Positions 5,716 through 9,780 are shown, numbered from the stretch's first letter. The stretch is 13,172 bases of DNA from a virus (IMGVR_UViG_2778261453_000011:1-13172); one strand, 5' to 3'. Translations and numbers: made by a program. The notes: generated from the sequence alone by a model not told the origin.

Positions 5716-6708
5716 TCACCCCCTGAATCCTGCCGGGATCTGGCTGTAGTCCACGTTGTCGTAACTGGCTTTGAAGTACGGGTCTTCACGTTTTTCTGTG
5801 TGCGTGCTGACGGACGGCGATAAGCGCAGGGAAAGCTCATCCCATTTTTCCCGCAACTTCGACGGGCTGAGCACGTTACGGCACCAGAACGGATCGCGGC
5901 TGACGCGGCTGTACATCTCGCAGATTTGTTTGTGAGTACGACCATCCTGCACACACATCAGGCGAATTTCGTTTGCCCATGCTGTCCAGTTCGGTTCTTT
6001 GGGACGAACCACCTCGCCGTCACATTCGGCGGCCTGCTCGTACAGGGCGATGATTTTTTTCCAGAGCCACTGTGCGCAGGTCAAATCATCCTGCGTTCCC
6101 CACTGGCGCTTTTTAGGGCTGAATACAACCGCATCAGGATGGCGAGTTAAAAACTCCTGTTCAGCCGTTTGCGTGTCCGGTTGCGAAGCGTCCGGACGAG
6201 AAGAGGTTTTATTCTCTGTAGTAATCTCTGTTGTATTCTCTGTAAGATCATTGGGCCATTTTGACCCGATGACAGCGTGTCGTTTTGAACCAATGGATCG
6301 TATCATTTTGCGCCCATCCATCAGGTCACTTTGACCCGATGGAGAAGTGCATTTTGACCTGATGGATTCGTTCACTTTGACCTCTTCTAAAAGCTCACTT
6401 TCATAGTTGATCGTGTAGAAGTTGGTCATGTCACGCTTCGATTTATTGAGTTGCTCGCGACGCAAAACCCCAAGTGATTTCAGGCTTGCAAATGTGCGTT
6501 TCAGAGTGGACTCTGACCAGAACGGAAACTGCTCCAGCCACTGTTCTGTCGTGTTATAAACCCAGCGAATTCCGCCATGCTCAGTGCCTGAATTCGTTTC
6601 ATTCAGCCAGTAATGAAGCTGCTGCAACACAATTGCCTCATTCAGACCAATACGGCATGCAAGATCACGATTTATCACAATGGGCTGGGATGTCATTAAC
6701 AGGCTCAT
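5716..6708 (-). CDS. Replication initiator (lambda O-like replisome organiser) with iteron origin inside its coding sequence
   Basis: 330 aa; N-terminal HTH-like region ([24 protein letters not shown]); six ~23-bp-spaced iterons in the middle of the gene; position downstream of the cro/cII-like genes. Confidence 0.7.
   Translation of the reverse strand: MSLLMTSQPIVINRDLACRIGLNEAIVLQQLHYWLNETNSGTEHGGIRWVYNTTEQWLEQFPFWSESTLKRTFASLKSLGVLRREQLNKSKRDMTNFYTINYESELLEEVKVNESIRSKCTSPSGQSDLMDGRKMIRSIGSKRHAVIGSKWPNDLTENTTEITTENKTSSRPDASQPDTQTAEQEFLTRHPDAVVFSPKKRQWGTQDDLTCAQWLWKKIIALYEQAAECDGEVVRPKEPNWTAWANEIRLMCVQDGRTHKQICEMYSRVSRDPFWCRNVLSPSKLREKWDELSLRLSPSVSTHTEKREDPYFKASYDNVDYSQIPAGFRG
6257..6384. 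repeat. Iteron array (origin of replication): 6 copies of C(A/G)(T/C)TTTGACC(C/T)GATGG at ~23-bp spacing
   Basis: Copies start at 6257, 6281, 6304, 6327, 6350 and 6373; adjacent 12-bp-period TCTCTGT x3 at 6213-6243. Confidence 0.65.
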
Positions 6709-7632: not shown

Positions 7633-7881
7633 TTACTTTCCATCTGATAAGTCTTTAATCTTTTGAAAAATATCTGGACGTAATTTTTCTTTTGATACGC
7701 CAGTGGTCATTTCAATGAATATCGAGAGCTTTGCAGGGGGACGCTTTTCTCTGTTCAACCAGTTCCAGACATGTTGTTGCTTTACTAAACGACCACTGCT
7801 GGCTGTGAGCTTCCGAGCCAATTCTGATTGACCACCAGCCAGAGCGATTGCCTCTGATAAGGCTAATTGCTCAGGTGTCAT
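7633..7881 (-). CDS. Cro-like / YdaS-family HTH regulator
   Basis: 82 aa, MTPEQLALSEAIALAGGQSELARKL...IEMTTGVSKEKLRPDIF; divergent from the cI-like gene across the operator region; SD AGGAGA. Confidence 0.7.
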   Translation of the reverse strand: MTPEQLALSEAIALAGGQSELARKLTASSGRLVKQQHVWNWLNREKRPPAKLSIFIEMTTGVSKEKLRPDIFQKIKDLSDGK

Positions 7882-8018
7882 AGCTTTCTCCTATCTGTAA
7901 GTAGTAAAGTTGTTGATAACTTCGATTATACAACTACAACAACTTTTATCACAACTTTTAGATGTTGGAAAGCTAAAACATAAAGTTGTAACCTCAATAA
8001 AAACGAGGGGGATATGTT
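7882..8018. promoter_or_regulatory. Right-operator-like region: divergent promoters with repeated AAAGTTGT / ACAACTTT half-sites
   Basis: AAAGTTGTTGATAAC (7906-7920), ACAACAACTTTT (7936-7947), ACAACTTTT (7951-7959), AAAGTTGTAACC (7982-7993) between the divergent cro-like and cI-like genes. Confidence 0.6.
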
Positions 8019-8705
8019 GTGAAAACATTGGCAGAAAGACTAAAAAGCGAAAGAGAAAAAGCAGGAATGAGTCAGGCGCAACTAGCTGAAAAAATTGGAC
8101 TTTCACAACAATCCGTAGCGAAAATCGAGAATGGAGAAACTCAACAGCCTCGGAAAATTAAAGAGATTGCTAAAGTGTTAGGGGTTTCTCAAAAGTGGTT
8201 GCAATTGGGCATTGAGGATAACGCGTCTTTCCCAAACCTTGTTGTAAAGGAGGCTGAAAGTACAACATTAGATCCTGACATTTTTGCAAACATTCCTGTC
8301 CTAGATGTCGAGTTATCAGCGGGTAATGGATGTTTGGCTGAAATAGTTGAATCAACTGTAGACTGGTTCCCGCTAAGAAGGATTGATTTAAGGAAAGCTG
8401 GTGTATGTGTCTCCAATGCAAAGATCGTAAAAATTTGGGGTAATAGTTTACTACCTGTACTTAACAATGGAGATTTTGTTGCTGTTGATGTTTCCCAAAC
8501 AGTTCCTATTCGTGATGGGGATCTTTATGCTATACGTGATGGCGTATTACTTAGAGTTAAAATATTGATCAATTTACCTGACGGTGGTCTGATTCTAAGA
8601 AGTTTCAATAAAGATGAGTATCCAGATGAAATACTCACCTTCGAAGATAGGCGTTCCAGAATTCACGTTATAGGTAGAGTATTCTGGTCATCGCGCACTT
8701 GGTAA
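8019..8705 (+). CDS. cI-type repressor: N-terminal XRE HTH plus C-terminal S24 (LexA-like) autopeptidase domain
   Basis: HTH MSQAQLAEKIGLSQQSVAKIENGE; Ala-Gly cleavage site (LSAGNG); Ser in GNSL and Lys in RVK as catalytic dyad candidates. Confidence 0.85.
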   Translation: MKTLAERLKSEREKAGMSQAQLAEKIGLSQQSVAKIENGETQQPRKIKEIAKVLGVSQKWLQLGIEDNASFPNLVVKEAESTTLDPDIFANIPVLDVELSAGNGCLAEIVESTVDWFPLRRIDLRKAGVCVSNAKIVKIWGNSLLPVLNNGDFVAVDVSQTVPIRDGDLYAIRDGVLLRVKILINLPDGGLILRSFNKDEYPDEILTFEDRRSRIHVIGRVFWSSRTW

Positions 8706-8732
8706 TGCATCAAAAAACACTCCTTCAGAAAT

Positions 8733-8837
8733 TTAGTTACCATTATTACCCGCCTTTTCAATCTTCCTCCCGTGATTTGAGAGTTTCCAATCACGGAAGG
8801 AAAGTGTCCATTGTGTAATTAAAAGCGCATCGTCCAT
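8733..8837 (-). CDS. Possible small ORF (34 aa, MDDALLITQWTLSFRDWKLSNHGRKIEKAGNNGN) convergent with cI
   Basis: Perfect SD AAGGAGG 4 nt upstream of ATG 8837; contains a 12-bp inverted repeat (8767-8778 / 8789-8800); no homology recognised. Confidence 0.2.
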   Translation of the reverse strand: MDDALLITQWTLSFRDWKLSNHGRKIEKAGNNGN

Positions 8838-8879: not shown

Positions 8880-8945
8880 GTCAAAACCACATAAAGTTGT
8901 TGATAACAACCAAAACAACAACTAGATTACAACTTAAAGATGTTG
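8880..8945. promoter_or_regulatory. Left-operator-like region: second copy of the operator repeats, promoter of the plus-strand early operon
   Basis: Exact 15-bp AAAGTTGTTGATAAC at 8893-8907 (identical to 7906-7920) followed by ACAACAACT and ACAACTTAAAG. Confidence 0.5.
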
Positions 8946-9038
8946 CAGTAACGAACAGGCAGGACGCCCACGAAGTAGCCGCCGGTGGCGTATGAATGAC
9001 CGGATGATTCGTTAAATACTATGTGTAAGAGAGCGCAA

Positions 9039-9242
9039 ATGAACCGTTATTTCACATGCTCGTTTTGTGGCGCAAACGAGCTGCAGGCAAAAAAAATCAT
9101 CGCCAAAGGCGGAAAAGATGAAGTTGCTATCTGCTCTGAGTGCGTAGTCTTGTGTGTCGGGGCATTAATCAATATCAGCACAACTATTCATTTCACACCA
9201 AATGAGAATGCGCCTTTAGATGCGCGGAAATCTGGAGGTTAA
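9039..9242 (+). CDS. Small protein with ClpX-type N-terminal zinc-ribbon (C4) domain
   Basis: YFTCSFCGANELQAKKIIAKGGKDEVAICSECVVLCVGAL matches the ClpX zinc-binding domain pattern as I recall it ([32 protein letters not shown]); first gene after the left operator. Confidence 0.6.
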   Translation: MNRYFTCSFCGANELQAKKIIAKGGKDEVAICSECVVLCVGALINISTTIHFTPNENAPLDARKSGG

Positions 9243-9331
9243 AGAACAAAATGAAAGTCCAGATTTTAAACAATAGTGGTGAAGTCGTTTGGGCGTAAAA
9301 CATGACCGCGCGTAGACCAAGGGAGGAAAAA

Positions 9332-9508
9332 GTGGGAATAGTTAGAAATCAAGCAGATATATTGAAAATCAGCTCTGAATTGCTTGGAGTTTTGAAAAGT
9401 GAGCTCACCACACATGGCATCGAGCCCACTGACGAAAATTTAAGTTGGGTTTTGTCGATTATTCAACAATCACTCAAGCCCAGCCTCAGCAAACTTTTTA
9501 TCGAGTAG
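9332..9508 (+). CDS. Hypothetical small protein (58 aa from GTG 9332)
   Basis: SD GGGAGG 5 nt upstream of the GTG; 3' end overlaps a convergent minus-strand ORF by 39 nt. Confidence 0.35.
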   Translation: MGIVRNQADILKISSELLGVLKSELTTHGIEPTDENLSWVLSIIQQSLKPSLSKLFIE

Positions 9509-9661
9509 TGCTTCGAACTTATCGTAAAGCTTGCTTATGTCGTCTATCGGGTTTTCTGACGTACTGTAATTTTTATCTGATGTCATGGCAGCAGTCTGAT
9601 ATGCAGTGTGAGTCTTAACCGATAGTTGGAATAAATAAAGAATTTTTTCTTCTTTGGTCAT
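9470..9661 (-). CDS. Hypothetical small protein (63 aa, MTKEEKILYLFQLSVKTHTAYQTAAMTSDKNYSTSENPIDDISKLYDKFEALLDKKFAEAGLE)
   Basis: SD AAGGAAA 7 nt upstream of ATG 9661; AT-rich; opposite orientation to the surrounding operon. Confidence 0.4.
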   Translation of the reverse strand: MTKEEKILYLFQLSVKTHTAYQTAAMTSDKNYSTSENPIDDISKLYDKFEALLDKKFAEAGLE

Positions 9662-9780
9662 AACTATTTCCTTCTTGGCTATATGAAAACACCAAGATAC
9701 CACCGAGCCTGAAGTGGTGAAAAGACAGGCACATAACAGCTAAGTATTTTCAACCAGAGAGAATCCTTAGCGTTGTGGTG

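Follow-up and report, generated by a model that had tools for sequence, protein, structure and literature searches.

What would a lambdoid prophage gain from a free copy of the N-terminal zinc finger of ClpX, encoded beside its repressor gene? This question is raised by the window analyzed here, a stretch of 13,172 nucleotides of viral DNA (IMGVR_UViG_2778261453_000011) that belongs to an E. coli prophage of the SfII/CPS-53-like lambdoid type, and to which RefSeq genomes carry 98–99% identical DNA. An earlier note, made from the sequence alone, had placed a protein of 67 amino acids here and described it as a stand-alone ClpX-type zinc-binding domain (ZBD), and the coordinates that it gave are borne out: the open reading frame starts with the ATG at 9039, ends with a stop codon at 9242 on the plus strand, and is translated as MNRYFTCSFCGANELQAKKIIAKGGKDEVAICSECVVLCVGALINISTTIHFTPNENAPLDARKSGG. 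We refer to this protein as ZnF throughout, and the features of its neighborhood are collected in Table 1.

Table 1. Features around the ZnF gene (window coordinates; "." denotes no strand).
Feature	Position	Strand	Basis
Cro/YdaS-type gene	7633–7881	-	genomic neighbors
cI-type repressor (HTH_3 and Peptidase_S24; annotated as XRE family regulator), co-directional upstream neighbor of the ZnF gene	8019–8705	+	Pfam, PGAP
Hairpin 3' of the repressor gene, no U-tract on either strand	8764–8802	+	inverted repeat I3, 17-bp arms
OL-like operator repeats (candidate), overlapping the promoter candidate	8885–8946	.	repeats recur in the cI/cro intergenic region
PL-like sigma-70 promoter candidate, TTGATA-17 nt-TAGATT	8900–8928	+	consensus scan
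Structured leader RNA between promoter and ZnF gene, 64 nt	8950–9013	+	alignments A5 and A6, covariation counts
Leader helix P1 (outer)	8950–8955/9008–9013	+	covariation
Leader helix P2 (small hairpin)	8958–8960/8966–8968	+	alignment
Possible H-type pseudoknot in the leader	8975–8980/8987–8993	+	alignment
Leader helix P3	8982–8986/8999–9003	+	covariation
Shine-Dalgarno-like AAGAGAG, 5 nt 5' of the ZnF ATG	9027–9033	+	sequence itself
CDS, stand-alone ClpX-type zinc-finger (ZnF) protein	9039–9242	+	ORF list, Pfam, PGAP, purifying selection
Zinc-binding domain proper, residues 6–40	9054–9158	+	Pfam match region, PDB alignment, AlphaFold2, Foldseek
Variable C-terminal tail, residues 46–67 (probably disordered)	9174–9239	+	pLDDT, lineage divergence of tails

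An alternative in-frame ATG at 9021 would extend the protein to 73 residues; this codon is not kept among the homologues, all of which share the start codon that opens the reading MN..., and PGAP likewise calls a protein of 67 residues. GGAG-type sites occupy the position of the Shine-Dalgarno-like element in the homologues. Across the 45 codons of the conserved core, comparison of the window with the Salmonella and Nissle 1917 homologues gives dN values of 0.16–0.27 at saturated synonymous sites, and dN/dS is 0.10–0.25 wherever it can be computed. Residues 1–45 are under strong purifying selection, and the combination of low dN with synonymous saturation shows that ZnF is a real gene.

The earlier note had named a search with the zf-C4_ClpX profile as the check on a ClpX-type C4 zinc ribbon, and this search supports the assignment, as PF06689 matches the 67-residue protein with 41.3 bits (E 1.4e-10) against a gathering score of 27, and its homologues with 26–41 bits. 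The zinc ligands are C7, C10, C32, and C35 (CSFC and CSEC, 21 residues apart), and these four cysteines are invariant across all intact family members. The description as stand-alone holds as well: an AAA+ module is lacking, and NF003745 and TIGR00382, the NCBIfam equivalogs for ClpX, match an N-terminal stretch only (model positions 6–43, 25.7 bits against a cut-off of 359). Among PDB sequences, phmmer finds ClpX as the sole match, with 2ds5/1ovx as the best (E 3e-4). A single-chain AlphaFold2 model built from an alignment of eight family members has moderate confidence in core residues 1–40 (pLDDT 73–84), falls below a pLDDT of 50 in tail residues 52–67, and folds as a beta-hairpin (residues 20–32) followed by a helix from residue 33. 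When this model is compared with the PDB by Foldseek, the top six matches are all ClpX ZBDs at a probability of 1.00, five of them 2ds5/2ds6/2ds8 ZBD chains (TM 0.77–0.82 on the target, rmsd 1.4–1.7 Å) and the remaining one the full-length CLPX integrative model 9a5x, and the seventh-ranked match has a probability of 0.33. The resemblance to the ClpX ZBD is far above chance, and ZnF presumably also binds zinc and dimerizes.

RefSeq names near-identical proteins "ClpX C4-type zinc finger protein" (WP_033545897.1, the PGAP annotation at a locus, L001, that is 98.8% identical to the window). The identity of the gene is solid and already annotated there, and it is reasonable to infer that ZnF may interfere with ClpXP proteolysis. 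ZnF falls into PHROG 5259 (E 1e-31) and its longer form into PHROG 20296, both labeled "unknown function", and a fold search in BFVD returns only uncharacterized phage proteins, including a 65-residue "Clp protease" of Pseudomonas phage PP9W2 and gp683 of Bacillus phage G. NCBIfam holds no dedicated model for the family, PADLOC-DB defense models give no match to the short or long forms at E <= 0.1, and full-text literature searches found no described function for any family member. YdaE of the Rac prophage, a "zinc-binding protein", was considered as a relative and rejected, as its Cys/His pattern differs.

Upstream of ZnF, the cI-type repressor gene is flanked by a Cro/YdaS-type gene, beyond which the minus strand carries genes of the CII(CP76) type, for a replication protein (5716–6708), and for a Q-type antiterminator. 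From this gene order around cI, the plus strand beyond cI is the leftward (PL) direction. The PL-like promoter candidate on this strand is overlapped by repeats of which ACATAAAGTTGT (8889–8900), TAAAGTTGTTGATAAC (8892–8907), and ATTACAACTTAAAGATGTTG (8926–8945) all recur in the cI/cro intergenic region (7905–7989), and because of this recurrence we take the repeats within 8885–8945 to be candidate OL operators. The earlier note had called ZnF the first gene of the early operon; the promoter-like site, the operator-like repeats, and the synteny described below support this placement, by which ZnF would be the first open reading frame of a leftward early (PL-like) transcription unit. The stable hairpin that follows cI (fold z-score of -2.6 for region 8700–8830) possibly marks where the cI transcript ends; it could be a terminator of atypical form or a site at which RNA between cI and PL is processed.

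We note in addition that a 15-codon reading frame directly beyond ZnF (MKVQILNNSGEVVWA and a stop codon; 9252–9299, plus strand) is the 5' remnant of a gene for about 98–120 amino acids, which is intact in related phages (MKVQILNNNCEVVWSYDIAAPVDQSGDSW...; loci L014, L074, L088, and L128) and truncated also in SfII, and the inserted ZnF gene separates this remnant from the leader RNA. Further on lie two small, overlapping reading frames on opposite strands, 9302–9508 (+) and 9470–9703 (-), both with strong PHROG matches (phrog_15476, E 4e-49, and phrog_2605, E 3e-33, are cited for the pair), and only the minus-strand frame is annotated by PGAP and by the SfII authors.

Between the promoter candidate and ZnF lies a structured leader RNA, which is 83–98% identical in 53 sequenced temperate phages of Escherichia, Salmonella, Shigella, Yersinia, Pectobacterium, Klebsiella, Citrobacter, Providencia, Pantoea, and Aeromonas, and which in these phages always stands shortly 3' of the repressor gene. 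A pattern scan of IMG/VR finds it at no fewer than 120 loci (L014 onward), with further copies at L002 5001–5064, L007 2501–2560, L008 2501–2564, L009 2501–2547, and L010 2501–2552. In 46 diverse copies, 95% of the cells are paired in the structure of three helices and a possible pseudoknot, compared to 30–38% when the partners are slid, and 11 pairs have changed on both sides (5 of the 6 in P1 and all 5 in P3). The covariation score of 0.438 (0.152 in shuffles) is reached by none of 500 shuffles, and is to be read with the caveat that the single-stranded core at the center was prescribed by the search pattern. The P3 loop GGC(R)UAYGAA and the junction CACGAAGUAGC are invariant. Gathering and permissive searches of Rfam 15 return no family for either the leader or the ZnF gene.

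Each phage has a single copy of the leader, and the genes 3' of it vary widely, which fits an operon-level role, with put-like processive antitermination as a candidate. The put RNA of HK022 is likewise a structured RNA of about 65–70 nt at the start of the PL transcript, in a lambdoid phage without a recognizable N gene; however, put folds into two stem-loops and the leader into a three-way junction with a possible pseudoknot, and HK022 has both putL and putR where the leader occurs once per genome. We reconstructed HK022 putL from the genome, with numbering in agreement with PMC9378689. An identity of the leader with putL was rejected, as the two show no sequence similarity and have no core motif in common, and covariance model R1 has no match in HK022, and the KilS sRNA, considered as a possible relative, is unrelated. 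Being widespread, covarying, absent from Rfam, and located at the position of HK022 put, the leader RNA may matter more than ZnF itself.

In a leader subtype with a CCACC/GGTGG outer helix, the sequence immediately 3' reads as an arginine-rich peptide (...TRSRFKRSAGRR...) that is conserved between loci (L053, L057, L070, L106, L108, L113, and L115 of IMG/VR), and that may be an arginine-rich motif like that of N, or may simply show that the conserved RNA extends further.

How widespread is the gene itself? ZnF or its 75%-identical Nissle-type variant is present in 131 of 5426 complete E. coli genomes, and 263 viral contigs of IMG/VR carry a relative. SfII shares the leader and the DNA downstream but lacks ZnF, and about 95% of the phages with the leader RNA lack the gene, which is on these grounds accessory and dispensable. 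This distribution bears on the idea that ZnF is a nucleic-acid-binding regulator, an N-like or Com-like zinc protein acting on the leader RNA or on DNA: ZnF does occupy the position of gene N, and it stands right 3' of the leader in 72 of 73 IMG/VR loci, but the leader dispenses with ZnF in that large majority of its carriers, the Enterobacter and Mu-like lineages have ZnF without the leader, and the protein is near neutral (7 basic and 6 acidic residues). Nor is the arginine-rich motif of lambdoid N-type antiterminators found in ZnF, which has 2 Arg and 5 Lys in 67 residues and a net charge of about +1. As each occurs alone, neither the leader nor ZnF needs the other; we rejected an N-like RNA-binding role for ZnF on this basis, and we consider a nucleic-acid-binding regulator of any kind very unlikely.

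ZnF keeps its place behind a repressor gene in other phages. In Salmonella phages 118970_sal3 and F1055, as in the Nissle 1917 and SZQ1 prophages, it is the gene immediately 3' of the repressor gene and points in the same direction. A co-directional reading frame, mostly for an S24 repressor, ends within 500 nt upstream of ZnF at 60 of the 73 evaluable IMG/VR loci, and across these loci the same 67-residue protein stands behind repressors of at least four clusters, less than 70% identical to one another. In an Enterobacter/Citrobacter lineage, a 56% identical ZnF follows the repressor gene without the leader RNA, and has a strong promoter-like TTGACC-17-TAGATT directly 5' of it (L135), stronger than the candidate in the window. 

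A further case is a Mu-like prophage of Oleidesulfovibrio (L137 3425–4277; JBKEBF010000007.1), where a ClpX-type finger is the last gene. This finger is 43% identical, has the extended hairpin and the VAIC and LCV motifs of the ZnF family, and lies 76 bp 3' of the repressor gene and directly before repeated TTTCTCATTTTGG end sequences, in a prophage with genes for a MuA-type transposase and for Ner-like and repressor HTH proteins. The finger gene has no evident promoter of its own, and its position suggests that it would be co-transcribed with the repressor in the Oleidesulfovibrio lysogen.

Such an arrangement invites the reading that ZnF is read through from the repressor promoter and guards the repressor, or some other protein needed for maintenance, against ClpXP, thus stabilizing lysogeny. 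ZnF is co-directional with the repressor gene and 76–420 bp away from it in every case compared, in the Mu-like prophage it sits promoterless, as far as is evident, between repressor gene and end repeats, and the hairpin after cI in the window has no U-tract, all of which speaks for this reading. The lambdoid cases, however, have a putative promoter and operator repeats between repressor and ZnF, as in a classical repressed PL, and the same ZnF follows unrelated repressors. S24 repressors, moreover, are inactivated by RecA-stimulated self-cleavage and not by ClpXP, and taking these points together we regard a role in lysogeny as unlikely.

The reading that we tentatively favor is that ZnF is a mimic of the ClpX N-domain, competing for N-domain-dependent substrates or adaptors. 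The PL-like early operon would yield ZnF as its first product once the cI-type repressor leaves OL; the small zinc-ribbon dimer would then present a surface like that of the ClpX N-domain and, in competition with the N-domains on the ClpX hexamer of the host, would bind the proteins that dock there, whether adaptors of the SspB, RssB, or trigger-factor type or N-domain-dependent substrates of the lambda O or MuA type. During early lytic development, ClpXP would thus degrade a different set of proteins for a time. We infer when ZnF is expressed, as well as each step in which ClpX or one of its clients takes part.

Mimicry is suggested by a homology that is specific to ClpX, and by a core that is constrained while the repressor, the replication module, and the tail change. 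This constancy of the core across unrelated repressors and replication modules makes a conserved host component the more likely partner of ZnF. That both lambdoid and Mu-like phages carry ZnF by the repressor points the same way. These are two classic cases of ClpX-N-domain-dependent biology, and in Mu the stability of the repressor and the remodeling of the MuA transpososome both depend on ClpX. A further argument for mimicry is that the isolated ClpX ZBD, as reportedly found by Wojtyra et al. in 2003, inhibits the degradation of lambda O in trans. The earlier note had proposed a decoy or adaptor that alters ClpXP proteolysis, and the decoy idea is plausible. A narrower part of this proposal, that the protein might stabilize the O-like initiator of the phage, finds no support, since ZnF carriers differ in their replication modules and ZnF travels with several of them; the N-terminus of the initiator in the window is, we presume, also unlike the N-terminal tag of lambda O.

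How closely, then, does ZnF resemble the domain that it would mimic? The conserved core of the family comprises residues 1–45 and follows the pattern M-x-x-(Y/F)-(Y/F)-T-CSFCG-x-x-E-x-x-AK(K/R)I(I/V)AKGG(K/R)DE-x-AICS(E/D)CV(V/I)-x-CV-x-x-(L/M/I)-x-N. The ZBD of E. coli ClpX (1OVX, 2DS5-2DS8; PF06689) has the same C4 pattern and spacing class and the same fold of a beta-hairpin and then a helix (rmsd of about 1.5 Å), and the two share CSFCG, K(K/R)(I/L)(I/V)A, ICxxC, and the non-ligand Cys43. Their identity of only about 37% is too low for ZnF to have been captured recently from the host, and this counts against mimicry. In ClpX, F16 and I46 form a hydrophobic pocket for trigger factor, SspB, and RssB (PMC7804408). 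Phe16 of this docking pocket corresponds to Phe9 in ZnF and the position of Ile47 to Leu, Met, or Ile, whereas the equivalent of Ile46 is variable in the family (A/V/T/I/K/L) and Tyr34 is replaced by an Ala that is invariant throughout. The ZnF hairpin is, in addition, longer than that of ClpX by three residues, invariantly so in the family (AKGGKDEvA versus AGPSVY), and its helix is more hydrophobic (VVLCVGAL versus VDLCNDII). ClpX continues into a linker and an AAA+ module, while ZnF lacks both, has a variable tail or an extra domain in their place, and is encoded by an early gene of a prophage. Judged from these replacements, the ligand surface of ZnF appears to differ from that of ClpX, and this apparent remodeling (hairpin insertion, Tyr34 to Ala, variable Ile46) is the main evidence against mimicry.

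Also to be counted against mimicry are the dispensability of the gene and the abundance of ClpX-type fingers in non-phage contexts. Searched with the profile, 1.84 billion cluster representatives yield 611 clusters at E <= 1e-3, and the best 150 of these are nearly all short proteins of 27–305 residues with one to four fingers, only three clusters being of ClpX length (416–465 residues); more distant relatives of the finger sit in ordinary chromosomal, non-phage surroundings. The free ClpX-type finger is a common architecture, known though unstudied, and given the abundance of stand-alone and tandem fingers outside phages the fold evidently has other uses as well. As an observation in its own right, 37 separate stretches of a protein of 2505 residues (P0016) match the ClpX-finger profile (256 bits), and many proteins of 100–300 residues hold two to four ClpX-type fingers in tandem (e.g., P0024, P0027, and P0176), so that repeated ClpX-type fingers are recurrent outside ClpX.

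The main rival to mimicry is a fold that serves as a generic zinc-stabilized scaffold for dimerization or interaction, acting on another host target as do the many small takeover proteins, Kil among them, encoded at the head of PL operons, with no link to ClpXP. Both the hairpin and the pocket residues that differ from ClpX and the stand-alone chromosomal fingers just described are in line with this, as is the content of the slot 3' of the leader RNA, which in other phages holds a wide variety of unrelated small genes, some of them KilR-like. The forms of 112–121 residues, in which the finger is followed by an extra helix-rich C-terminal module, point in the same direction, as the finger is here fused to an unrelated module that is also found alone as a first gene. 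Against a scaffold of this kind stand the sequence and fold similarity, which is specific to ClpX and not to zinc ribbons in general, and the Mu-like occurrence, which fits a link to ClpX; no data point to an alternative target. We consider such a scaffold nearly as likely as mimicry, though short of probable.

Concerning the longer forms, the Nissle-type protein of 121 residues (L005 6001–6366) joins the finger to a helix-rich module of about 60 residues, and this module stands alone as the first gene 3' of the leader RNA in another phage (L075 and L035 are cited). Finger and module are annotated as separate reading frames in 118970_sal3 and are fused (112 residues) in most Salmonella genomes. 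The module matches no known family, and the predicted structure of the 121-residue form (mean pLDDT 49.5) is too poor for a fold search. The reading frame at 9302–9508 of the window was considered as a split-off copy of this module and rejected, as BLASTP finds no similarity.

A conserved core with lineage-specific tails or an added domain is also the architecture expected of an adaptor or poison, in which the finger would heterodimerize with the ClpX N-domain, and the tail or C-terminal domain would deliver cargo to ClpXP or block its pore. The ClpX ZBD homodimer is very stable, which makes an exchange with a partner of 37% identity doubtful. Much of the interface is formed by the helix, and this helix is more hydrophobic in ZnF. 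That the ZBD is a dimerization domain (Pfam description; PMC7804408) nevertheless speaks for heterodimers. The tails themselves are wholly different between sub-lineages and without a common motif, and frameshifts sometimes swap them while core and gene are kept, which argues against this reading. We consider an adaptor or poison distinctly unlikely. 

Neither do the tails look like known ligands of the ZBD. The ClpX-binding peptide of SspB, of the XB type, is LRVVK. The ClpX beta-hairpin is said to pair with this XB peptide, following Park et al. in 2007. A consensus for ZBD binding is LKxh (PMC7226468). The tail in the window, STTIHFTPNENAPLDARKSGG, contains neither LRVV nor LKxh, and the tails of several lineages end in beta-strand-like sequences (IDISFPDAP, ITVKFGDAP, LSVKFDYAP, and GEITKISL), none of which fits LKxh. 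This absence of an XB-like motif counts against mimicry.

Returning to mimicry, its general form would be that temperate phages of Enterobacteria and at least one Mu-like phage of Desulfovibrionales encode, early or adjacent to immunity, a mimic of the ClpX N-domain that titrates N-domain-dependent adaptors or substrates, a generalization that we regard as rather doubtful at present. ClpXP controls lambda O, MuA, the Mu repressor, sigma-S, LexA fragments, UmuD', and ssrA-tagged proteins. If mimicry holds, ZnF would be a natural, genetically encoded off-switch for N-domain-dependent proteolysis that leaves the ATPase untouched; if it fails, ZnF is another small early-gene product.

The closest precedent in lambda is functional. 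CIII, a product of the PL operon of lambda, inhibits the host protease FtsH by competition. Like ZnF as proposed here, CIII is a small protein of the leftward operon that blunts a host AAA+ protease, but CIII acts as an amphipathic-helix pseudo-substrate on FtsH and has no sequence or structural relation to ZnF, whose effect on a protease is hypothetical. IraD, IraM, and IraP, as well as T4 PinA, are likewise small proteins that alter the substrate choice of a host ATP-dependent protease, as ZnF would; the Ira proteins bind RssB, PinA binds Lon, and their folds are unrelated to that of ZnF. None of these copies a domain of the protease itself, and ZnF, if it acts as a mimic, would be the first viral modulator of ClpXP to copy the protease's own recognition domain, and would add a new phage strategy beside CIII with FtsH and PinA with Lon.
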